From a bacterium (lineage in GTDB: Bacteria > Patescibacteriota > Minisyncoccia > JBBINA01): a stretch of 64,000 bases of DNA. Below the pieces are notes generated by a model, which ran no database searches, was not told the DNA's origin, and worked only from the letters and a program-made list of their open reading frames with translations. Below, in pieces: positions 13,397-61,889 of this stretch (the first letter of the stretch is position 1; the number at the start of each line of letters is the position of its first letter). The DNA lies in assembly GCA_037444125.1 (NCBI GenBank), contig JBBINA010000001.1, forward strand, positions 13,961-77,960, written 5' to 3'. A program made the translations under genes and the position numbers.

Positions 13397-13751
13397 TCAC
13401 TGTTTGTTTGGTTTTTGTGCTAGCTTTAGGATAAGACATTTGATTGTTTTGGGTTTGGTACCGATTGGCCAGAAAAATTGAGCTACATCGGTATGTTTTA
13501 TTTTTGATTTATGCCAACATTTAAATGAAATAGTTACGCCAAAACTAAACTTTATTTTACCGTCGGTTAGTCTTGCTATGACAGTAATGTCTTTAACATT
13601 TTGATCTTCGTGAGAATTTGCTGCATGGCGGATAAATTTCGTTAGATTTTTTTCATTTGGATCAAATTTTTTCAACGCTATCTTCAAGGAATTGACATGC
13701 GTTTCGTGCGTCTAATGGAGAATTCGTTGGGCTTGCGTTTGTTTTTACCAT
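13397..13751 (-). CDS. hypothetical protein interrupted by a frameshift in a homopolymer run
   Basis: 96-aa ORF 13397..13687 plus upstream 29-codon ORF (MVKTNASPTNSPLDARNACQFLEDSVEKI) fuse if the A6/T6 run at 13667-13672 is one nt shorter. Confidence 0.35.
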
Positions 13752-13789
13752 ATTTATTATTTATGTATGCCTCCTTTAGAGCGGAAGTT

Positions 13790-14275
13790 CTAATTGAATT
13801 TCATCTTTAATGGGTATACCGTGATAGCCAATATGGGGAATTTGGGGCTTGAGTTTGCGCGATTCTTTTATGGCATCGGGGTATATTTGTGTTATTCTGA
13901 AGCCGCGTTTTGAAAGAATTGCAAGGCATTTAGATTATCATTAGTGGTTATTAGCCATATTTTGTCTAATTTTCTTTGACGGGCCATTTCGATGATTTTT
14001 TCCAAAACAATACTGCCAAATCCGATATTTTGGATATCACTATTGAGCGTAACTATTTCACAATGTTTATTTTTATTTGGTATGTTAGTACGGCGAGAAC
14101 CTGTTTTGTAAGAGCTTCGAATAATATTAAATTAGGAATTTCTAAAGCGTTAATTATTTTTTTGGCGCCTAACTATTAGAGACGTTTCTCAGTGTTTGGA
14201 AATAAATTTAGCTAATCATTCAGAGTCACCAGCAACTTTGTGGTGGATTAGAACATATTGCGATTTCATATTTCA
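13790..14275 (-). pseudogene. GNAT family N-acetyltransferase, heavily decayed
   Basis: minus-strand fragments ...NIGFGSIVLEKIIEMARQRKLDKIWLITTNDNLNALQFFQNA... and GFRITQIY... resemble GNAT motifs A/B but are split by stops and frameshifts. Confidence 0.4.
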
Positions 14276-14532
14276 CCCCTTATGTTATTATTATAGTGTG
14301 CGGTTATTTTTAAAAATCAAGTTTCACAAATAAAAAATAAAGGAGTTGTAAATTAAATTTAGACATTTACAATAAATTTAAATGATAAATATTGGAAAAT
14401 TTTACCAGAGATTTTTGGGGGCATTTTTTGCATTGGTATTGATATATCTGCCTTTAAAAAAATATTAATCATCAGTGCAAATTTAAATGAACACTCTGCC
14501 GAAGCGGCTGTTGTTACTCAAAGAACGGGGTA

Positions 14533-15948
14533 TTGCTTATGATATTTTTTGATGCTCGTTTAAATCAGCTTAGTTCAAGTATCTTGGGTACCAGTGCGCC
14601 TAGATATGACGGTATTATTTTAACGGAAGGCAATTTGGCTTATGAAGAGAACGGGCAGTTTAAGAGCGTCTTTGATGATAATGAATGGAATATTTTGTAT
14701 ACATTTGAAAACCAGTTTAGAATTAGGGAGCTAGTTATGTATACTTTTCCTACTAGTCGTTATGGCTTGGAGTTTGTTGAGACAAGGCCGGCAGGTATAT
14801 TAGCTCGACTTACGACTTCTGGTAAAGGAATATTGCCCTATGTTCCTGTAGCGGCTTCTTTAGCGATTGAAACTTATGGTTATTTAGCGAGACCTCTTGC
14901 TGGTAATACGCCATTAATAACCGATACTGACGGCCGAATAGCTGTTTCATTATATACAAACGGCAACAGAGAATTTTTAGTTTCTACTTTTGATAACAGC
15001 GTTAATCATCTTCACACTTTATTGTTTATTGACTGATTTTTAAACTGGTTGTTGAAAGGTGATTACTCCATACCTTCAGAGAATTATTTGACTGTTCATA
15101 TAGATGATATATTTATTCCTAACTCAAGTTATTCAGATCCTTCTAGAGATGTTATAATGACAAAAGAAGATTTTATTTATTTTGCCAATTGGGCTCGAGT
15201 GCGGAATTTTAGGCCAAGCCTTTTATTCAATGGTTATGGAGAAAACACGATAGAAGGAAAGACGCTTATTGATACGGTGATGAGTAGTGGAATAGCCTTC
15301 CTTTTTGAATGGATTAATCACACTTACGAACATATTAATTTAGATAATGCTTCGTTTGAGATAATTTATAATGAAATCTATAGAAATTTATCTTTCGCCT
15401 CACGTTACAAATTAACAGGTTTTGACCGTTTTGTTTTAGTCACGGGTGAACATTCGGGATTGAACAATCCTCAGCTTATTGCTGCGGCGCGGAGATTCCG
15501 CATTATAAATATAGGAGATGACGCCTCGGTGAATTTATCATCAAGATCTCTTTAGGGCATAATAACTGTACCGCGTTACCCAACAAATATTTTTGCGACT
15601 ACAGGCACGAGGCATGAGCTAGTAACTGCTTATAATACAATATATGGCACTAATTTAACTTATCCTGAAATACTTGACCGAGAGGCAAGGATTATTATAC
15701 GCCATATTTTACGGAGAGATCCGCGACCTCACTTTTTTCATCAAATCAATTTAGCACAAGATAGAATTATGATTGATTTATTAAACCTGGTTATTGAGAA
15801 GTACTCGTCATTAGATTCAAGACCATTAAAGCAATTGCGGATGAGGGAAATAGGTAAGTTATTTGGCCAAGTTACAATTTTACCTCCTTTAGTTGTAAAC
15901 AAATTGATTGGTATAACAAGGCATTTTGATGCTGATATAATGAAATAA
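14533..15948 (+). pseudogene. single ~470-codon reading frame interrupted by in-frame TGA (15034-15036) and TAG (15553-15555); possible polysaccharide deacetylase-like protein
   Basis: three consecutive open stretches in the same frame; 131 stop-free codons after the TAG; HIDD and HTYEH resemble CE4 motifs only weakly. Confidence 0.55.
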
Positions 15949-15974: not shown

Positions 15975-17452
15975 ATGTCAAAAACTATTTCAATTATAAC
16001 GGAGGGGACTTTTCCTTATGTAACTGGAGGGTTAGGGAGATGGTGTAGTGATCTTGTTTCAGGACTGGTTAATTTTAAATTCAATATTTATGCTTTTACA
16101 GCTACGCGTTATCACGTTTTTCAGTATCCTATAACTAACAATATTGAGGAAATTGTAACTGTTCCCTTGTGGGACGATAATCGTTTTCAGCATTTTTATT
16201 ACAGGAGAAAAATTAAAAAAAAAGACTTCCAGGGAAATTAATTCCCAAAGAAAGTCATATGAAGGAGAGTTTAATTGATCCCCTTTTTAGTCTTATTGGT
16301 CCTCCATATACAACTGAAATAGATATTGATTTTTTTAGAGATATATTAGTTAAACTTCGTGATTTTTTTGATAGCTATGATTATTTTGCGAGTTTTAGTT
16401 CAGGAGTATTATAGGAAGCAGCGCAAGAATTTCTCAATAGTGATGCCTTGATAGATGTTGTTTCTTGTAAGCCAAGCCTTTTTGATTTAAGGCAATTTTT
16501 GGTTATATTGAGCCTTTTTTTATATCCACTTTCTTTTGAGACGGAGTTTAAAACCGATATTTTTCACTCGAGCGTAGCTAGCTCTTTTGGTTTGTTAGGT
16601 GTTATCAACAAGATTATTTATGGAAAACCATTTGTTTTATCCGAACATGGTGTCTATCTTCGTGAGCAATATTATTTTATTAAGCAATCTCGAGTTTTAA
16701 CAAAATTTTTAAAAAAATTTTTACGCTTACTTATATACCGTTTTGTAATTTTGAATTACAATTTTGCTGATAAAATTATTCCGGTGTGTCTCTTTAATAA
16801 ACGTTGGGAACAATATTTGGGAGCAAAAGATGATAAATTGCAGGTTATCTATAATGGTATAAACGATAGCAGTGAGTTTGAATTTTTAAAACAAGAGTAT
16901 GTTAAAGAAAAAACAAGCTTTAATGATATTATATTAGTTGGCGCTTTTTATCCTTTTAAAGACATTGAAACAGCTATTAGGGCCGTAGCTATTGTTAAAA
17001 AACAGGTTCCTAATATTCGTCTCTATATTTTCGGACCAATAAAAGATAAAGACTATTTTTCTTATTGTTTAAGATTAATTAAAAATTTAAGTCTTAAAAA
17101 TAATGTTATTTACCGTGGAGTAGTGAAAGACCTACAAAATTATTTCAAGGTAGGAGGCGTTTTTTTGTCGACAAGCGTTTCAGAAGGCTTTCCTTACTCG
17201 ATTCTGGAAGCTATGTTGTATAAACAGGCAATTGTAAGCACATCTGCAGGTGGTATCCCCGAATTATTAGGTGACTGCGGTCTTTATGTTGAAATGAAAA
17301 ATCCAAACTCTGTCGCCAAAGCATGTCTTAAGCTATTACATAATCAAAGTCTTCGTATTGAATTAGGTTGGCGTGCCCACCAAAGGGCTGTAGAGCGGTT
17401 TTCTTTAAGTAGAATGCTTAAATCTTATGAGTATTTGTATAATTCGCTATGA
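15975..17452 (+). pseudogene. GT4 family glycosyltransferase (PelF-like) disrupted by an A9 frameshift and an in-frame TAG
   Basis: N-term GTFPYVTGGLGRW and C-term GFPYSILEAMLYKQAIVSTSAGGIPELLGD are GT4-like; frames join inside A9 run 16215-16223; in-frame TAG at 16412-16414. Confidence 0.7.
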
Positions 17453-18906
17453 GAAAGATTTTAAATTTTAACAATATAAAGTTATCCGAGAAAAAACTTA
17501 TTGCTCCATATATATTAGACACGGCAGTTAATCTTGAGTTTGCAGGTTACAATGATCAGCAGATAAAAAAGGAATTCGGGTTTTCCAATGTTTTTGAATT
17601 AAGCTATTTTATTCATCAGTATAGGCTTTGCCCTAAACCTTTTTTGGTAAAATCGAATAAATGGCAAGATAAGTTTTTAGCTAGTGATTCGATTAGGTTA
17701 AAAATATTTGAGTGGTTTTATTTTGGTCTAGCTAATTCTTTACTAGCCTTGGTTATTTTTTTTACTCTTTGGTTTACTGAATCAGGACATATTTTAAAAC
17801 CGATTGAAGGTTTAATAATTGTATTGTTGAGTCACATTTTTGCTTCTAGTTGGGCGAGAATACTGATTGTTAAGTTTTCATTTTATAACGATAGACCAAT
17901 AGCTGGTTATGGCGAGAAGACAATTAATCAGTATTATCTTAGGGGCCTATTTGGGATTATAACGGCAGGCATTATTTTGTTTTTTTTGTTTAGCAGAGAT
18001 AATATTTTTACCCTCGTTTTTATAGACATATCTTTATTTTGGCTTAATATAGGATATTTTGTTGCGTTTCGTCAGTTACCAATTTATTTAATAACCTTAG
18101 GTAGTATCTTGTTTCTTGGCAGTATCTATGATCCTTTTGTGCTATTTGGTGTTTTTAATGGCGTTATGATTTTTTATATTTGGCTCAAATATTTAATTAA
18201 CTTGGCGCGTGAACCATTTTCAGTTTATTCCAATTCATTTAGTAATAATTCATTGAATTTATTTTCTTTATTTTTTTTTGCTATTAATTATGGTTTCTTG
18301 CTGTTGATTGATGTCATTGTTTTGTTTTTCTATGGCCAGTTTGATACATATGATATTTTTATTCATCAGTATCTTGCCCATAAGTATTTTGGTATATTTC
18401 CTTTACTTTTGTCGGCGGGTCTTATTGAGGCATTTGGTGTTTATTTTTTTAGCAAGATTATTCGTTTGGAGCGAGTCATAAAAGAAAGCACAGTTATGTT
18501 CAATGAAATAATAAAAAACTATATCCAGACTATTAGCATTTTTTCAATGCTGCACTTTGGTGTAACGATATTAGTATCCTTCATTATTCCATTAAGCAAT
18601 GGTTATTTTAAAGAAGTTTATATTAGTTCAACTATTGGTGTTATGTTTTTGCTTTTGAGTTTGTTTAATTTGAACATTCTTCATTATTTGGGATGGCGTA
18701 AAGATTTGTGGTTTGGTATAGTTAGTTTATTTGTGGGATATGTTTATGGCAGTTTAATGTTTTATAATGTTGCCGCATACGCTGTTGTTTATGGTTTTTT
18801 GATGGCCGGGATTGTCTTTTTTGTCACAACAATGGCTTTGTTGTTGAAAAAAGCTTTACGGTATAGCTACTTAGTTTATTTAACTTCTGTATTGCCAAAG
18901 TTATAA
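17449..18906 (+). CDS. polytopic membrane protein (about 12 TM; candidate polysaccharide exporter/polymerase, PelG-like by architecture only)
   Basis: 485 aa, ~70-aa soluble N-term then multiple TM helices; ATGA overlap with upstream GT4, TAATG overlap with downstream gene. Confidence 0.55.
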   Translation: MRKILNFNNIKLSEKKLIAPYILDTAVNLEFAGYNDQQIKKEFGFSNVFELSYFIHQYRLCPKPFLVKSNKWQDKFLASDSIRLKIFEWFYFGLANSLLALVIFFTLWFTESGHILKPIEGLIIVLLSHIFASSWARILIVKFSFYNDRPIAGYGEKTINQYYLRGLFGIITAGIILFFLFSRDNIFTLVFIDISLFWLNIGYFVAFRQLPIYLITLGSILFLGSIYDPFVLFGVFNGVMIFYIWLKYLINLAREPFSVYSNSFSNNSLNLFSLFFFAINYGFLLLIDVIVLFFYGQFDTYDIFIHQYLAHKYFGIFPLLLSAGLIEAFGVYFFSKIIRLERVIKESTVMFNEIIKNYIQTISIFSMLHFGVTILVSFIIPLSNGYFKEVYISSTIGVMFLLLSLFNLNILHYLGWRKDLWFGIVSLFVGYVYGSLMFYNVAAYAVVYGFLMAGIVFFVTTMALLLKKALRYSYLVYLTSVLPKL

Positions 18907-20111
18907 TGAGGGCTTTTTTATTTATATTAATGATAGTAATGATATTGGTTGGTGTAGCGGTTGGTGATGCTTTTTTAAGTGCAGCGGCTATTTTTGAAAG
19001 GCCGATTCTTCGAGGGCCAAGCAACGGCAAATTAATAAACGAAACTCCTATTATATTTACCTGGTCTAAAATTAAAAACGAGCCTAGATACCAAATTGAT
19101 ATTTCTCTTTCAGCCGATTTTAATAAGATAATAATTACAGAAACAGTTATTGGAAATACTTATACGCTTAGGTTTTTAGATAATGATGGTATATATTATT
19201 GGCGAGTTAAATTAGCAGGGTTAATGTTTTTTTTAGCTCCATGGTCAGAAGTTTATAAATTTACTTATAAAAAAAAATTAAAAGATCAGGTTTTAACTGA
19301 ATTAAGCCAGTCTGAATTTAAACAGCCAATTTTTCGGTTTAGAAACTGGGTATCTTATTATGGCAGCAATAAAATCGAGGAATTAAAAAAGTTCGAGCTT
19401 GTTGTTATTGATGCAGATAAAGATATAGGAAATTATACTGACGAGGAGTTGCGTCAACTCAGAGATTCTGGGTCATTAGTAGTGAGTTATTTAAATATTG
19501 GTTCATGTGAAACCTTTCGTACTTATTGGTATTTGTGTCAAAAGTTTAAACTTAAGCCATATAAAGGGTATTCAGATGAATATTGGATGGATGTGACTAA
19601 TATTGACTATCAAAATTTTATAGTCAATATTTTAGCTAAAAACCTTGTTTCGCAGGGCATAAACGGTTTGTATTTGGATAACATTGATATATATCAGGAA
19701 AGTTTTAACGGAAGGACAATAGCAGAAATCAAGGCAGGATTAGCTAATATTATTGTTGCCTTAAGGAGAACATATCCTGATTTGCTTCTTATTGCTCAAA
19801 ACGGCGTCTACGCTTCTTATGATGATATTTTATATTTTAGTTCAACAATTACTGATTCAAAACCACTTTATACTTTTATTGATGGTGAGTCTCACGAGGA
19901 AGTTTTTACTAATACTAGCGAAACTCAGTCTATAGTAAGTATGCTACAAGATCTTAAGAGCAAAGGTTTGTTTATTTTAAACCTTGAGTATTTGGAAGAC
20001 CTTCAAGATATTGATAGAATAAGAGATATTTATAACCGCTCTATCCAAAACGGGTTTTTGCCATATATTTCAGATGTAAAGCTTGACAAAATTTACCTTT
20101 GGAATTTTTAA
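18906..20111 (+). CDS. secreted GH114-like glycoside hydrolase (endo-alpha-1,4-polygalactosaminidase / PelA-hydrolase / TM1410 family) with N-terminal Ig/FN3-like domain
   Basis: signal/TM N-term; motifs VVSYLNIGSCETFRTYWY and GLYLDNIDIY typical of the GH114 TIM barrel. Confidence 0.65.
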   Translation: MRAFLFILMIVMILVGVAVGDAFLSAAAIFERPILRGPSNGKLINETPIIFTWSKIKNEPRYQIDISLSADFNKIIITETVIGNTYTLRFLDNDGIYYWRVKLAGLMFFLAPWSEVYKFTYKKKLKDQVLTELSQSEFKQPIFRFRNWVSYYGSNKIEELKKFELVVIDADKDIGNYTDEELRQLRDSGSLVVSYLNIGSCETFRTYWYLCQKFKLKPYKGYSDEYWMDVTNIDYQNFIVNILAKNLVSQGINGLYLDNIDIYQESFNGRTIAEIKAGLANIIVALRRTYPDLLLIAQNGVYASYDDILYFSSTITDSKPLYTFIDGESHEEVFTNTSETQSIVSMLQDLKSKGLFILNLEYLEDLQDIDRIRDIYNRSIQNGFLPYISDVKLDKIYLWNF

Positions 20112-20138: not shown

Positions 20139-20172
20139 AAAAGGAGGTAGATCGTCGCCTCCTTATTTTAAT
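20139..20172 (+). terminator. rho-independent terminator (AAGGAGG-N10-CCTCCTT + ATTTTAA)
   Basis: 7-bp stem 28 nt after the GH114 stop. Confidence 0.55.
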
Positions 20173-39259: not shown

Positions 39260-39368
39260 GGTTGGGGCTTCAAAAATTATTTCATAACAGTCATATTGAC
39301 AGAAGTAATTTTATACATTAAAATATAGATAGAGCTCACTAAAACAAATTTATAAAGGAGTGATAGTG

Positions 39369-40583
39369 ATGAAGAGGTTTGTATGCTTGGTCGGTTTGCT
39401 CCCGTTTTTTGCTGGCATTAGCGCGGCGGCGCAGGTTCCGTGGGTTTTTGAGCGTCCGGGATTTGGCGGCGGACTTGATGTGAATATAATTAAATCCGGG
39501 CAATTCGTTGAAATCAGAACTACCCATGAAGCATTTCTTTGTGTTTATGGATTTTCGCTTGACCAAAAGATTATTGATTATAATGACCAGGTACCTGTGG
39601 CGGTATTAAGATACGCTGGATCTAAAACATTATTAAATCCTAAAAACGCAGTTTGGCTGCAAGTTATTGCTGTAAAGACTAGTCCAGTTTTTGAATGTGA
39701 TTCGCAACACTTAAGTTTCTTTAGAACACCTAATGAACTTAGTGATTGGATGCAGGTTTTAGCTAGAAGCATTCAAGAGTATGGCGTTTCTCTGTGGGCG
39801 GCTAGATTTATTTATTTAGGATCTGCGCAAGGTGAAGGAGCAAAAATTCAAGGAGCAGTGGAAAATCAAAACCCGACGCCCCTTGTTACTTGGAAGCCAC
39901 AGATTCCTTTTGTGGGCCAAGAAGTTATTTTCGATGCTTCTAATTCGTATGATTCAGATGGTGGGATTATTTGGGTAGGTTGGGATTTTGGTGATGATGG
40001 CATTTTTGATACTACTGGAACAAGCTTAAGCGTTAGTTTTCGTTTTCAATCTGCTGGTTATCAAAAAGTTAGGTTGACCTTAAAAGATAATCGCGGCGGG
40101 CAAGCTAGTACAGTTTTAACACTAAGGGTAAACCCCCTAAGAGCTGAGGAAGTTTTCAGTTATACGATTAATGCTGAGTGTGTAATTATTGATAGCGGCG
40201 GCGCCAAAGAATATGTCCTAGTAGAAAGCAAATATTATTCATTTAATGCCGGTTCTTCCAGTTTTCGAAGTATCGGTTGGGATTTTAATTTGGATGGACG
40301 AAATGACAGCCAGGCTGTGGCTATTATGTCTTTCCCTAAGGGAGTGCGGTATATTGCTATTAACGGTATAAATAGTACAGGTGAATATCGAGGCGAGCAG
40401 ATTAAGTTAAAGGTTGTCACCGTTTCAGAACTTTCGGTTTATTGTAGGGTAGATAAGATTTATCAACCACCCAGCAAACCATCAAAAACCCCTGTCCCCA
40501 TTAATTTTAAGACAATTGTGGCCGTTTTTATGGTTCTGCAAGTAGTAGGCATTGTTATTTGGGGAATTATTAATAAGAGTTAA
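39369..40583 (+). CDS. cell-surface PKD-domain protein with signal peptide and C-terminal TM anchor
   Basis: signal peptide, PKD motif FDASNSYDSDGGI..VGWDFGDDG, C-terminal hydrophobic anchor; SD AAGGAG 8 nt before ATG 39369. Confidence 0.7.
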   Translation: MKRFVCLVGLLPFFAGISAAAQVPWVFERPGFGGGLDVNIIKSGQFVEIRTTHEAFLCVYGFSLDQKIIDYNDQVPVAVLRYAGSKTLLNPKNAVWLQVIAVKTSPVFECDSQHLSFFRTPNELSDWMQVLARSIQEYGVSLWAARFIYLGSAQGEGAKIQGAVENQNPTPLVTWKPQIPFVGQEVIFDASNSYDSDGGIIWVGWDFGDDGIFDTTGTSLSVSFRFQSAGYQKVRLTLKDNRGGQASTVLTLRVNPLRAEEVFSYTINAECVIIDSGGAKEYVLVESKYYSFNAGSSSFRSIGWDFNLDGRNDSQAVAIMSFPKGVRYIAINGINSTGEYRGEQIKLKVVTVSELSVYCRVDKIYQPPSKPSKTPVPINFKTIVAVFMVLQVVGIVIWGIINKS

Positions 40584-44482: not shown

Positions 44483-46258
44483 ATGAAGCGTTTATTTGGA
44501 ATATTAAGCACAGTGCTTTTATTAATTGCAGTCGCAAAAGTGGTTTTTGCTGGTAATGATCTCCAACCAGTTGAGTTTGCGACTGGACGTATTATTCTAA
44601 AGTTCAAAAATAATGTTGGCCTAGGTGAGCAAATATCTTTATTCAAAAAACTTGGCTTAGAAAAAATCGACATTTTTAAAAAATTGGACTATCAGCTTAT
44701 GAAAGTAAAGCCCGGCAGTGAACAGAATTTAATTGCGCAATTGAGAGATAATCCTTTAGTTGATAAAGTTGAGCTTGACGGAGTTGTTAGAGTATTTATG
44801 ACAACAAATGATCCTTTAATTTCGCAGCAGTGGGGTCTTTTTAAAGCCAAATTTGCTGATCCAGGTACAAGTGCCTGGGATATTAATAAAGGTAGTACAT
44901 CTATTAAAATTGCTATTTTAGATACAGGGATAGATCAAAATCATGAAGATTTAGTGAGCAAGATTGTGGTAAATAAGAATTTTACCACCAGTTCAACTGT
45001 TGATGATTTATATGGTCATGGCACTCATGTGGCGGGTATTGCCGCGGCAGTAATTAATAATAATATTGGCGTGGCCGGTTCTGGTTATAATTCAGTACTA
45101 ATGAATGTTAAGGTATTGGATGATCGTGGCTCTGGTTATTACTCATGGGTGGCTAATGGTATTATCTGGGCTGTTGATAATGGCGCTAAGGTGATTAATA
45201 TGAGTTTGGGCGGTTCAATGGCTTCGTCAATTTTGGAGGATGCTATTAATTATGCCTGGAGTAAGGGTGCGGTAGTAGTGGCAGCAGCGGGTAATGATGG
45301 TTCTGATGCTCCCAGTTACCCAGCTTATTATACTAATGCGATTGCCGTTGCCGCTACAGATAGTAGTGATTTGAAAACTAGTTGGTCAAATTATGGTAGT
45401 TGGGTTGATGTGGCTGCGCCAGGTTCTTCGATTTATTCAACTTTACCTAATCATAGCAATCGAATTGGCAAAAGAAACTATGGCTCACTTTCAGGTACTT
45501 CTATGGCTGCGCCTTATGTGGCAGGCTTGGCTGGATTAGTTTGGGCGAGTGGTTTATGTTCGAATAATACTTGCGTAAGGAATCAAATAGAATCGACCAG
45601 TGATTCAGTTCCTGGTACTGGATTATATTGGACCTATGGTCGTATTAATGCACTTAATGCTTTAGGTGGAGTTAGTCTGCCTCAGCATTATGCCCTTGAA
45701 GTATTCAAAAATGGCAATGGCAATGGTAGTGTTATAAGCGAACCCTTAGGTATTGATTGTGGCGGTGATTGCGTGGAAGAATATTTGGGAGTAACAGTTG
45801 TCAGCTTGACCGCCATAGCTGATAGCGATTCAGTTTTTGTTGGATGGTCTGGTGATTGTACAGGTACAGAAAATGTATGTGTTTTGGTTTTAGATTCAAA
45901 TAGCCAAGTTAAAGCTACATTCAACAACATAAATTCGCCAAGTCCAACGAGTATGGTTGTGCAGTCAGTTGACTATGTTAAATACGGTGGTCGTCAAAAT
46001 AACCGGAATATAGATATCATCATTTCTGTGGTAGATAATTTAGGTGGCCCGTTAGAAGGTGCAGCTCTTTCAATACTTTTAACCAATACTACTTGGGGCA
46101 TTAGTTGGAGCGGTAAAGGTACAACGAATAGTAATGGGAAGGTAACTTTTACCTTAAAAAACGCGTTTTCGGGTTGTTATGTTGTAACCGTGACTGAATT
46201 AGTTAAATCTGGTTTATCATGGGATAACATTACGCCACCTAACGGTGTTTGCAAGTAA
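44483..46258 (+). CDS. secreted subtilisin-like serine protease (S8) with C-terminal extension
   Basis: signal peptide, I9-like propeptide, catalytic triad motifs ILDTGID, HGTHVAG, GTSMAAPYVAG. Confidence 0.92.
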   Translation: MKRLFGILSTVLLLIAVAKVVFAGNDLQPVEFATGRIILKFKNNVGLGEQISLFKKLGLEKIDIFKKLDYQLMKVKPGSEQNLIAQLRDNPLVDKVELDGVVRVFMTTNDPLISQQWGLFKAKFADPGTSAWDINKGSTSIKIAILDTGIDQNHEDLVSKIVVNKNFTTSSTVDDLYGHGTHVAGIAAAVINNNIGVAGSGYNSVLMNVKVLDDRGSGYYSWVANGIIWAVDNGAKVINMSLGGSMASSILEDAINYAWSKGAVVVAAAGNDGSDAPSYPAYYTNAIAVAATDSSDLKTSWSNYGSWVDVAAPGSSIYSTLPNHSNRIGKRNYGSLSGTSMAAPYVAGLAGLVWASGLCSNNTCVRNQIESTSDSVPGTGLYWTYGRINALNALGGVSLPQHYALEVFKNGNGNGSVISEPLGIDCGGDCVEEYLGVTVVSLTAIADSDSVFVGWSGDCTGTENVCVLVLDSNSQVKATFNNINSPSPTSMVVQSVDYVKYGGRQNNRNIDIIISVVDNLGGPLEGAALSILLTNTTWGISWSGKGTTNSNGKVTFTLKNAFSGCYVVTVTELVKSGLSWDNITPPNGVCK

Positions 46259-59125: not shown

Positions 59126-59318
59126 TATTGCTGTTTCTAACTAGCCTAATGTTTCGGAACATATAAAATCGAAACAAATAAAATTCTGGAAAATTATTGG
59201 CATTTGTTTAAGACACTATTATACTACTAAAGCTGGAACTTCAAGAAGAAAATGAATAAAGAAATAAAAATTTTTGCAAAGCGCGGAGGAGCGCTTTTTA
59301 ATTTTTGAATTAATTTCT

Positions 59319-61889
59319 ATGAAAAAGTATTTTGGCGTTATAACTTTTAGTTTATTTAGTTTTATTATATTTGGCTCTATCTCAGTTTTGGCAGCAGGGC
59401 CAAGTTGGGATATTTCTGGTACTTGGAATATTGTTTTTGATGTTGGAGGTACTCCTTATCTACATACAATGAATGTAACTTTATTTAATACATTAACTGG
59501 GGAGTTTATAGCTAATGGATTTTATAATCCCGACCCTTCATATACTTGGAACGCCACCGGAACTGTTTCCTCGAACTTAGTATCTTTTCATGTAGTTTAC
59601 ACTGGAACTAACTCTGGCTATAGTTTCGATGTGGCGGGCACTATCGCTGGCGATGGTTTCTCGATGTCGGGCGTGTGGGATTTAGGTACTTGGGCAGGAA
59701 CTGGTCAAGCCACGGGATTAGCGCGGTTGACTGTCAACAAAGTCGTAATCAATGATAATGGTGGTAGTAATAGCGTAGATGATTTTGACTTATTTATTAA
59801 TGGCAACCCAGTTTTAAATGGTTCGTCAACAATAGTCATCGTAGGTACATATATAGTAAGCGAAACTCCAGTTTTAGGTTATGTCGGAACCATTGGCGGT
59901 GATTGTGATTCTCAAGGCGTAATTGTTTTGTCGCCGGGAGATGATAAAATTTGTACGATTACAAATGATGATGAACCGGGACATATAATTGTTCAAAAGA
60001 CTACCCACCCCTCTAGCGAACAAACAGAATTCGCCATCAGCGCTACTGGTACTGGAGCGGTTTTAAATGGTGAAAATGGCACCACAACTGATGCTATTGA
60101 TTATGAGTATTTAGTAAATGCAGGAACTTATTTCGTAACGGAGACAGTACCAGCGGGATGGATAATGCTTAGCAATAGCTGTCAGGACATGGTTATAGAA
60201 ATTGGCCAGACACTTTTTTGCGAAATTGTCAACTTGAAACTGGGGGAGATTCACGGGGTTAAATTTGAAGATTTAAATGGAAATGGGCAGAAAGATCAGG
60301 GCGAGCCTGGGATGTCAGGTTGGACAATTTATCTTGACTCAAATAATAATGGACAATTCGATTTAGGAGAAATTTCTACACAGACAAGTCAAAATGGCAG
60401 TTATGCGTTTACGAACTTGATGCCTGGGCAATATAATGTTAGAGAGGTATTGCCAGCAAGCGGCTGGAGCCAAACTTTGCCAGTGAATAATGGTAAATAT
60501 GTTGTTGATATTTTTCCTGGCACTATTTCTCAAGATAATGATTTTGGCAATTTTCAATGGAATCTTATTACCGGTTTTAAATGGCATGATCTTAATGGTG
60601 ATGGTATTTGGCAACAAAATGAGCCACCACTTGAAGGTTGGCCAATTGAACTTCATAGAATTATTCAGCGCGATCCGCAGGGAAGTCCAATTGAAACTGA
60701 ACTAGTTGCTTTAACTTTAACCGGTGGCGACGGGAGTTTTAGATTATATGGGACGGGAGTTGCCCATTTTGGCTATGGCCTTAAAGAGAAAAGGCGGGAA
60801 GGCTGGATACAAACCGCACCAGAAGTTTCGTCATTTTTTGATGTATTTTTTGAAGTATTTGTAACCCAGAGCGGACAAACCCATACGACTGATAATCAAC
60901 AAAGATCTCTGAATTTTGGCAATTTTGAACTTAATAAAATTACAGGTTATAAGTGGGAAGATATAAATGGCGATGGCATCTGGCAGCAGGGCGAACCGCC
61001 AATTTCATTGTGGAAAATTAAGCTTGATGGCAAAGATCGAGATGGCAATATTATTCATCGAGAAACCTTTACTGATATTAATGGCAGATTTTCTTTCTTT
61101 GATGTATTTGTAAATTTTCAAAATGAGCCTTATAAGATTACGGAAGAAAACAAAAATGGTTGGATAGGGACTTATCCAACGAGTTCTTTCTTTGATGTGT
61201 TTGTTGAATTGAGCGGCGTAGAACATACCACTGATCATAACAACTTGCCTCTTTATTTTGGTAATTTCAGATTGGGAGAAATTCGTGGAACAAAATTTGA
61301 AGATGTTGATAGAAATGGTAGAAGAGGTTCCGCAGAGCCAGGGCTTGCGGGTTGGACTATTCAGTTAACTGGATTTGATGAAATTACCCAACAGAATGTT
61401 AATCTGGCTACGACCACTGACTATAATGGAAGATATTCTTTTACCGGTTTGACCAAAGGCACCTATACAGTTACCGAAGTAGGACAACAAGGTTGGAGCC
61501 AGACTGCTCCTTCTTCTGGGAGTTATACTTTAACCATTGATACAAGCGGACGCGTTTATGCGGGCAAGGACTTTGGCAATTTTAGGCTAAAAAATTTCCA
61601 TGGACGTAAGTACCATGATGTTAACCGTAATCGTAGATATGATAATGGCGAGCCGTTGCTTCAGGGTTGGACTATTGAATTAATGGATATGATGGGGGGT
61701 GCGCGGCTGCGTACAACCACAGATATTAATGGCGAGTATGTGTTTCTAAATGTTATGCCGGGAAAATATTTTCTTCGCGAAATAGTTGAGCCGGGTTGGA
61801 AGGCTTGGAGTCCGAGAACAGGATTTTATCTTTTGAAGCCTCAAAGTTCAGATACTTTGTCTTATGATTTTGGGAATATTCCTTTATAG
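59319..61889 (+). CDS. large secreted surface protein with about five SdrD-B-like/prealbumin-fold repeats
   Basis: signal peptide; repeated units G.KFEDLNGNG..D.GEPG..GWTI.L......T.T...G.Y.F..L..G.Y.V.E; ATG 59319 preferred over 59274. Confidence 0.75.
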   Translation: MKKYFGVITFSLFSFIIFGSISVLAAGPSWDISGTWNIVFDVGGTPYLHTMNVTLFNTLTGEFIANGFYNPDPSYTWNATGTVSSNLVSFHVVYTGTNSGYSFDVAGTIAGDGFSMSGVWDLGTWAGTGQATGLARLTVNKVVINDNGGSNSVDDFDLFINGNPVLNGSSTIVIVGTYIVSETPVLGYVGTIGGDCDSQGVIVLSPGDDKICTITNDDEPGHIIVQKTTHPSSEQTEFAISATGTGAVLNGENGTTTDAIDYEYLVNAGTYFVTETVPAGWIMLSNSCQDMVIEIGQTLFCEIVNLKLGEIHGVKFEDLNGNGQKDQGEPGMSGWTIYLDSNNNGQFDLGEISTQTSQNGSYAFTNLMPGQYNVREVLPASGWSQTLPVNNGKYVVDIFPGTISQDNDFGNFQWNLITGFKWHDLNGDGIWQQNEPPLEGWPIELHRIIQRDPQGSPIETELVALTLTGGDGSFRLYGTGVAHFGYGLKEKRREGWIQTAPEVSSFFDVFFEVFVTQSGQTHTTDNQQRSLNFGNFELNKITGYKWEDINGDGIWQQGEPPISLWKIKLDGKDRDGNIIHRETFTDINGRFSFFDVFVNFQNEPYKITEENKNGWIGTYPTSSFFDVFVELSGVEHTTDHNNLPLYFGNFRLGEIRGTKFEDVDRNGRRGSAEPGLAGWTIQLTGFDEITQQNVNLATTTDYNGRYSFTGLTKGTYTVTEVGQQGWSQTAPSSGSYTLTIDTSGRVYAGKDFGNFRLKNFHGRKYHDVNRNRRYDNGEPLLQGWTIELMDMMGGARLRTTTDINGEYVFLNVMPGKYFLREIVEPGWKAWSPRTGFYLLKPQSSDTLSYDFGNIPL

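Follow-up and report, generated by a model that had tools for sequence, protein, structure and literature searches.

A decayed four-gene locus, probably of the bacterial Agd3-homologue exopolysaccharide type, with an intact membrane protein and hydrolase

The 64,000-nucleotide stretch of DNA analysed here (the window; contig JBBINA010000001.1, positions 13,961 to 77,960 of the forward strand) carries, at 14.3–20.2 kb, a group of co-directional genes resembling those for cationic exopolysaccharides, and the question that this locus raises is to which of the known polymer systems it belongs and whether it can still make a polymer. An earlier note, made from the sequence alone, had read it as three translationally coupled genes of a Pel-like or galactosaminogalactan (GAG)-like system. 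The reading favoured here, with moderate confidence, takes the locus for what is left of a synthase-dependent exopolysaccharide operon with four genes, assigned to the bacterial "Agd3-homologue" or "GAG-like" type, in which synthesis is dead and the two downstream genes, encoding a membrane protein (termed X) and a hydrolase, are probably still selected.

The four genes lie on the plus strand, in DNA with a local GC content of about 31–34%, in the order Agd3-type deacetylase (CBM87 plus CE18), PelF-type GT4 glycosyltransferase (GT), X with 12 predicted transmembrane (TM) helices, and TM1410-type endo-α-1,4-galactosaminidase-like hydrolase. An undamaged set of these four genes, with their order kept, is found in MHXC01000058, from the metagenome-assembled Parcubacteria group bacterium RIFCSPHIGHO2_01_FULL_47_10 (locus L002, 5253–11011), where the genes encode proteins of 557, 490, 502 and 336 aa and where the GT gene overlaps the X gene by 4 nt. 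The features of the window locus are listed below, with the evidence for each.

14383..15948, plus strand: deacetylase pseudogene (Agd3-type exopolysaccharide de-N-acetylase; N-terminal signal/anchor, CBM87, CE18); Pfam and orthologue alignment
14456..14462, plus strand: A7 run at the first deacetylase frameshift (frame 0 to frame 2); three-frame translation against the N-terminus of the L002 orthologue
about 14505–14530, plus strand: second deacetylase frameshift; three-frame translation against the N-terminus of the L002 orthologue
15034..15036, plus strand: in-frame TGA in the deacetylase pseudogene, opposite a Gly of the intact orthologue; orthologue alignment
15553..15555, plus strand: in-frame TAG in the deacetylase pseudogene; orthologue alignment
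15975..17452, plus strand: PelF-type GT4 pseudogene (DUF3492 plus Glycos_transf_1); Pfam, NCBIfam and tblastn
16215..16223, plus strand: A9 run where, or just after which, the GT4 pseudogene shifts frame by -1 (apparently through loss of 1 nt); tblastn and frame comparison
16412..16414, plus strand: in-frame TAG in the GT4 pseudogene, opposite a Trp of the intact orthologue; orthologue alignment
17449..18906, plus strand: membrane protein X, intact, 485 aa, a candidate polymer exporter analogous to PelG; clean open reading frame (ORF) and TM prediction
18906..20111, plus strand: hydrolase, intact, 401 aa; clean ORF, Pfam GH114 and TIGR01370
20141..20164, plus strand: terminator-like hairpin with a T-rich tail, 30 nt past the hydrolase stop; hairpin scan, suggestive only

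The stop/start overlaps that the earlier note had reported (ATGA at 17449 and TAATG at 18906) are borne out by the sequence, the GT4 stop overlapping the X start in ATGA (17449–17452) and the X stop overlapping the hydrolase start in TAATG (18904–18908). Its picture of three coupled co-directional genes stands for the ORFs at 17449–18906 and 18906–20111, but the genes number four and the first two are pseudogenes.

Fragments of the deacetylase match Pfam CBM87_Agd3 and Agd3_CE, the intact 557-aa orthologue matches the Agd3 structure 6NWZ in a PDB sequence search (E 4e-8), and the catalytic motifs HIDD, HTYEH, PRYP and HQINL (CE4-like) are still legible in the pseudogene. The suggestion that this interrupted upstream gene might be a CE4-like deacetylase was right as to a deacetylase homologue, but the enzyme is of the Agd3/CE18 type with CBM87 and not a plain CE4; the extent given to the gene, 14533–15948, is too short, as its start lies at 14383, where an ATG encodes a hydrophobic anchor. 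For the second gene, the GT4 family named in the earlier note is upheld by a match to Pfam Glycos_transf_1, accompanied by DUF3492, and the protein is of the PelF type: against NCBIfam PelF (NF038011, equivalog cutoff 100 bits) the C-terminal fragment in the window scores 115.4 bits, the intact orthologue 142.8 bits and intact relatives 143–157 bits.

Both genes are broken. Frame 0 of the GT4 gene starts at 15975 and stops at 16241, homology resuming in another frame and extending to 17452, so that the intact gene proposed at 15975–17452 is not one ORF. The Pfam and NCBIfam PelF matches are divided between ORFs at 15975–16241 and 16448–17452, and the intact orthologue, used as a tblastn query, aligns over residues 5–91 in one frame and 100–484 in another. 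The lesions amount to one frameshift, at the A9 run, and one nonsense codon, the TAG at 16412–16414. The deacetylase gene has two frameshifts and as many nonsense codons: residues 66–518 of the 557-aa orthologue are covered in a single frame with two in-frame stops, at 51% identity, and the first 65 residues are recoverable only through three successive frames. Reassignment of a stop codon, suggested by the TGA opposite Gly, was considered and ruled out. Of 28 large conserved ORFs in the window, 18 end in TAA, 5 in TGA and 5 in TAG; all three codons therefore act as stops, and frameshifts are present too. Since the GT4 and the deacetylase genes are both pseudogenes, synthesis of the polymer is predicted to be impossible in this genome.

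This prediction presupposes that the lesions are genuine. An operon that is fully functional, its lesions being sequencing or assembly errors or being bypassed in vivo by slippage on the A7 and A9 runs and by stop read-through, would account for the location of two of the three frameshifts in or beside A7/A9 homopolymers, and for the persistence of readable catalytic motifs in both broken genes, which retain 37–51% identity to their intact orthologues. Half of the six lesions, however, are nonsense substitutions (TGA at 15034, TAG at 15553 and TAG at 16412), and one frameshift lies away from long homopolymers. Other A9/T9 runs, within the intact X and hydrolase genes, have produced no frameshift, and more than 50 other ORFs (at least 100 aa) in the 64 kb are uninterrupted, including those of housekeeping proteins of 613–1069 aa; stop read-through, moreover, sits poorly with the termination of conserved genes by all three stop codons. 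The Logan assembly of run SRR11582170 is identical to the window over 21.4 kb, save for a sole mismatch outside the locus, but the two assemblies may share reads, so that a systematic sequencing error is not independently excluded by the comparison. Directly upstream of the deacetylase pseudogene, on the minus strand at about 13700–14270, lies the remnant of a GNAT-type N-acetyltransferase gene with several in-frame stops. Together with the deacetylase pseudogene, this remnant forms a pseudogene block of ~3 kb (13.7–16.5 kb) within otherwise intact housekeeping surroundings. Because the neighbouring GNAT gene has decayed too, the decay at about 13.7–16.5 kb appears, with a small residual doubt, to be local and real, and a fully functional operon is considered very improbable.

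If synthesis is lost, the question shifts to the two genes that are whole. X corresponds well to the ~12-TM membrane protein of the earlier note, its 485 aa comprising an N-terminal soluble cytoplasmic segment of ~75 aa followed by 12 predicted TM helices. It has no match in Pfam or NCBIfam. When 1.84 billion cluster representatives are searched exhaustively with phmmer, only four members (50%-identity clusters) are recovered, X itself included, and word-indexed searches with X or with the four-sequence X alignment return the query alone. The parallel drawn with PelG does not hold at the level of family: X and seven relatives fail to match Pfam PelG (PF16933) even at E ≤ 10, against 459 bits for a genuine PelG control. 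NCBIfam was discarded as a test of PelG membership, being uninformative, as the genuine PelG control is likewise unmatched there.

A structural model of X, itself of low confidence, matches only flippases and transporters of the multidrug/oligosaccharidyl-lipid/polysaccharide (MOP) superfamily, and Foldseek agrees, with WzxE as the top match. Alignment of the X profile to a six-sequence PelG profile with hhalign yields a collinear match of 292 columns with a score of 36.1, compared with 10.9–18.7 for 20 column-shuffled controls and 17.9 for a reversed one. X would hence resemble PelG in its position and probably its fold, without being demonstrably a member of the PelG family. Its N-terminal domain is common to the membrane proteins of Deinococcus and actinobacterial clusters (hhalign E 1e-9, 98% probability in global mode). 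In X (residues 1–80; 17449–17690) and in its counterparts in L002, L011–L013 and L015–L017, this region is seen as a short three-helix cytoplasmic domain preceding the TM region, with conserved A26, E30, G33 and D36; every Agd3-type and PelF-X cluster that was examined has the domain, and PelG lacks it. Since PelG models miss X, annotation pipelines that look for pelF-pelG pairs will overlook operons of this kind.

The hydrolase consists of a hydrophobic signal or anchor (residues 1–24), an extra domain of ~100 aa (~30–135) and a TM1410-type (beta/alpha)8 domain (~140–400). It scores 57.7 bits against Pfam Glyco_hydro_114 (PF03537) and 103 bits against TIGR01370 (the MJ1477/TM1410 family), and its matches in the PDB are TM1410 (E 1e-21), Env-GH191 (9ep5; E 6e-13) and PelA (E 4e-5), with no match to Ega3 at E ≤ 0.01. 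The description of a GH114-like hydrolase of TM1410/PelA/Ega3 type survives in its Pfam family, its TM1410 lineage and its catalytic residues; TM1410 itself is now placed in CAZy family GH191 and not in GH114 (PMC12054363). In an alignment of 13 sequences, D258 and E331 are invariant, corresponding to Asp156 and Glu225 of TmGH191 (PMC12054363); the pairwise HMMER alignment mis-gaps the catalytic Glu, and the correspondence of the motifs is GESHEEVF to GWAVENLF. The extra domain has no counterpart in the closest homologue of the hydrolase and no Pfam or PDB sequence match, and the label "Ig-like" given to it from its sequence pattern is a plausible guess. Elsewhere, in L005 (6754–10889) and L006 (6921–11056), a stand-alone homologue of the hydrolase lies in divergent orientation beside a canonical Gram-negative pel operon with a PelA-like protein of 950 aa, a PelB barrel and PelD; as the homologue stands next to a PelA-like gene, that system has two GH114-type domains.

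Do X and the hydrolase persist because they are useful, or only because decay has not yet reached them? The possibility that the whole locus is dead, with both genes neither expressed nor useful and merely not yet disabled, is less probable in our view. The two genes are downstream of a pair of pseudogenes within one operon, a promoter scan finds sites no commoner than chance and no internal promoter above chance, and X has no obvious role once its GT partner is gone. The distribution of lesions argues the other way: X and the hydrolase carry none in 2.66 kb, despite T8, T9 and A9 runs, compared with six in the adjoining 3.04 kb. A like density in the two genes would mean an expected 5.2 lesions, and the Poisson probability of finding none is about 0.005, an estimate that assumes simultaneous onset of decay in all four genes; X and the hydrolase may simply have escaped damage so far, which tells against continued selection. 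At positions otherwise invariant in the family, window X departs in 20 of 60 cases, much like the X of the intact cluster (18 of 58), the hydrolase keeps its catalytic Asp and Glu, and stand-alone genes of its lineage are common elsewhere. From the absence of lesions in both genes and the retention of the catalytic residues, X and the hydrolase, or at least the hydrolase, are probably still under selection.

As to what would be selected, a possible if speculative role is the cutting of galactosamine-rich polymers of other cells. A broader proposal, which is tentative and on balance doubtful, holds that after losing polymer synthesis a reduced-genome organism, probably episymbiotic and of the candidate phyla radiation (CPR), keeps X and the endo-galactosaminidase, which would have acquired its extra N-terminal domain, to cut or feed on the cationic, galactosamine (GalN)-rich, Pel/GAG-like matrix of its host or a neighbour and, separately, that the X family is an unrecognised exporter of synthase-dependent N-acetylgalactosamine polymers, a PelG analogue with a GT-docking N-terminal domain, in bacteria that lack PelD and PelE.

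That the cluster is conserved in relatives is seen in the four genes of Parcubacteria MHXC01000058 and in the GT-X pair of Acidimicrobiia-like contigs. Window X and L002 X share 28% identity over their full length (E 1e-40), and the hydrolase domains share 51%. The L002 cluster is set in a different genomic neighbourhood, the window locus being placed between the methionyl-tRNA synthetase (MetRS) gene and the genes for a TIGR00375-family PHP-type protein and ClpB, so that the locus behaves like an accessory module. At 2670–5231 of L002, upstream of the intact cluster, the scaffold has gaps (N runs), and the same upstream region holds a divergent 712-aa ORF on the opposite strand that was skipped by the gene caller. 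A scan of metagenomes gave no further CPR copy, L023 being the same sequence as L002. The PelF-X pair recurs in seven high-GC loci (L007, L008, L009, L011, L024, L025 and L026; 68–72% GC), of which L011 is titled Acidimicrobiia, and X always follows directly after the PelF-like gene; on the stretches examined, no Agd3-like or GH114 homologue is found in these loci by tblastn or Pfam. RTX (HemolysinCabind) repeat proteins flank the pair in L007 (4471–7187), L009 (2428–3432) and L011 (9564–10916); one of them matches Spherulin4 (GH135-like) weakly (E 0.039), with a sulfotransferase gene next to it.

Among plasmids, the best tblastn matches to the PelF-like query are in Deinococcus, Streptomyces, Kocuria and Thermus, in clusters where pelF is followed by an unnamed membrane protein of 420–480 aa, with an Agd3-like gene (~700 aa) and GH114 genes nearby; some add a spherulin-4 gene (GH135-like), a UDP-glucose 4-epimerase and a nucleotidyltransferase. 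By Pfam, Agd3 domains are present in the proteins from Deinococcus, Thermus and Kocuria; in a Streptomyces plasmid of the same layout, the ~700-aa gene upstream of pelF has no Agd3 Pfam match. On the Kocuria rosea plasmid NZ_CP126484 (L015, 4520–13588) a cluster of Agd3-like gene, pelF, membrane protein, spherulin-4 and GH114 lies between two opposite copies of the transposase WP_284563886.1, and these bracketing copies suggest that the Kocuria GAG-like cluster is carried by a composite transposon on a mobilizable plasmid.

In its intact form, as modelled on the Pel (PMC7112168, PMC9135694) and GAG (PMC9860509) literature, the four-gene system would work in four steps. The cytoplasmic PelF-type GT4 would polymerise a UDP-N-acetylhexosamine, most likely UDP-N-acetylgalactosamine (UDP-GalNAc), into an alpha-1,4 chain. 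X, with its 12 TM helices and predicted MOP fold, would then move the chain across the single membrane, its cytoplasmic N-terminal domain probably docking the GT in place of the missing PelD and PelE. The anchored or secreted Agd3-type CE18 deacetylase with CBM87 would strip part of the N-acetyl groups, yielding a cationic, adhesive polymer, which the anchored or secreted TM1410-type endo-alpha-1,4-galactosaminidase would trim or release.

The chemistry of this polymer may be doubted. That the intact system makes something other than alpha-1,4-linked GalNAc/GalN, for example a GlcNAc-based or mixed polymer, so that the Pel/GAG analogy is architectural only, is an unlikely alternative that nevertheless finds some footing: TmGH191 bound neither GalN nor GalNAc (PMC12054363), the donor specificity of the GT4 is not readable from sequence, and the CPR clusters lack an epimerase. 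All characterised relatives of three of the four proteins (Agd3; PelF; Ega3, Env-GH191 and PelA), however, act on GalNAc/GalN polymers (PMC7229062, PMC12054363, PMC7112168), and related plasmid clusters include the UDP-glucose 4-epimerase and the spherulin-4 (GH135-like) gene mentioned above. Env-GH191, furthermore, cuts Pel, favouring stretches rich in GalN (PMC12054363).

The remnant of a GAG-like operon with retained X and hydrolase is thus (on the whole of this evidence) preferred, with several points weighing against it beyond those already given. The chemistry of the polymer would follow from homology to enzymes acting on GalNAc and GalN; TmGH191, the nearest of the hydrolase's solved relatives, is inactive on GAG (PMC12054363); and no UDP-GalNAc-forming epimerase is seen in the locus or among the scanned ORFs of the window. 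For X, the hhalign match to PelG has a probability of just 15%, and its AlphaFold2 models are of low confidence, with a mean predicted local distance difference test (pLDDT) score of 50 and a predicted template modelling (pTM) score of 0.26 from the single sequence, and a pLDDT of 58.7 from the four-sequence alignment. Lastly, the host is only probably a tiny-genome bacterium of CPR/Parcubacteria type, as judged from nearest homologues and genome style.

The genes flanking the locus are those for MetRS, the GNAT remnant, the TIGR00375-family PHP-type protein and the ClpB-like protein. The operon probably ends at the hairpin at 20141–20164, a placement that is only suggestive, as the three terminator-like sites of the scanned region are not above chance. 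Rfam finds a single tRNA in the window, nothing in the L002 cluster, and no riboswitch (e.g., for cyclic di-GMP, c-di-GMP). Eight window proteins, including DnaK, enolase, ClpB-like, pyruvate phosphate dikinase and MetRS, are each the sole member of their 90%-identity cluster, and the lineage is therefore one without a close sequenced relative in a collection of 15 billion proteins. Surface or secreted proteins predicted elsewhere in the window comprise one with a PKD domain, a subtilase bearing Ig-like domains and one of 871 aa that has SdrD B-like/SpaA prealbumin-fold repeats (listed sites 39360–40583, 44483–46258 and 59274–61889), which are possible adhesion factors.

Among the major adhesins of biofilms are cationic GalNAc/GalN polymers such as Pel and GAG, and the bacterial operons of Agd3 type that would make such polymers are known from sequence alone, a literature search having found no experimental characterisation of one. 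A four-gene version in genomes of CPR/Parcubacteria type would extend these operons to attachment-dependent bacteria with minimal biosynthesis, and GT, predicted MOP-fold membrane protein, CE18 deacetylase and hydrolase would be the smallest candidate set for reconstitution. The window copy chiefly shows gene loss, in which the synthesis genes decay first and the hydrolase persists.

How, then, does the locus stand among known systems? The parallel with Pel and GAG is in part stronger than the earlier note had it, given the Agd3-type CE18 with CBM87, the PelF-type GT and the TM1410 hydrolase, and in part weaker, there being no PelD or PelE and X not being PelG by sequence. Compared with the Pel systems, pelABCDEFG of P. 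aeruginosa and pelDEA(DA)FG of Gram-positive bacteria (PMC7112168, PMC9135694), in which PelF is modelled as polymerising UDP-GalNAc (PMC7112168), the locus shares a GT above the NCBIfam PelF threshold (its ORF broken in the window), a 4-nt overlap from this gene to a 12-TM, predicted MOP-fold protein in the position of PelG, and a deacetylase and an endo-alpha-1,4-galactosaminidase-type hydrolase alongside, the expected product being a partially de-N-acetylated GalNAc polymer. It differs in lacking PelD (the c-di-GMP receptor), PelE, PelB and PelC, the L002 cluster also being without PelD and PelE, and no PelD_GGDEF or TPR protein is found among the genes flanking the window locus. Its deacetylase is Agd3/CE18 and not of the PelA type, its hydrolase is nearest to TM1410 (GH191) and not to the PelA hydrolase domain (GH166), and X is unseen by Pfam PelG and has an additional cytoplasmic N-terminal domain.

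With the galactosaminogalactan cluster of Aspergillus fumigatus (uge3, sph3, ega3, agd3 and gtb3; PMC9860509, PMC4817252) the locus has in common a CBM87-bearing deacetylase of Agd3 type, a hydrolase that is anchored in the membrane and related to Ega3, and polymerisation and export encoded together. The fungal Gtb3, however, is a single transmembrane GT of ~300 kDa, whereas the GT and the membrane protein of the locus are separate, and the locus has no Uge3 epimerase or Sph3 (GH135). Within CAZy GH191 (TM1410/TmGH191 and Env-GH191; PMC12054363) are found the best solved relatives of the hydrolase, whose Asp nucleophile and Glu acid/base are kept, but the window enzyme has an N-terminal anchor and an extra domain of ~100 residues.

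The closest counterpart is provided by the bacterial Agd3-homologue operons that Bamford et al. (2020; Nat Commun, PMC7229062, section 13, Fig. 8) recognised by bioinformatics. These operons contain an Agd3 homologue, a cytoplasmic GT and an alpha-helical membrane protein with multiple spans, GH114 genes are consistent companions, and spherulin-4 genes are present in some of those of Actinobacteria; their hosts are Actinobacteria, Deinococcus-Thermus and Proteobacteria (PMC7229062). The locus matches them in its Agd3 homologue with CBM87 and CE18 motifs (DD, HxxxH, RYP and HQ) and in the cytoplasmic GT of the same operon, though both are pseudogenes in the window, as well as in the multi-pass membrane protein (X, with 12 predicted TM helices and the common N-terminal domain) and in the co-occurring GH114-type hydrolase gene. 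It departs from them in a host that is probably of CPR/Parcubacteria type, in its reduction to four genes, an epimerase, a nucleotidyltransferase and spherulin-4 all being absent, in an X that belongs to a very small divergent subfamily, and in the loss of two of its four genes to pseudogenes. The terms "Parcubacteria" and "Candidatus" are absent from the supplements of Bamford et al. (PMC7229062), and a literature search found no paper combining Parcubacteria with PelF. Because it has no PelD or PelE genes, the locus is grouped, by gene content, with the bacterial Agd3-homologue ("GAG-like") operons and not with Pel proper. This type of operon has already been published, and the modest points that the present locus may newly add are its probable CPR host and a divergent subfamily of X.

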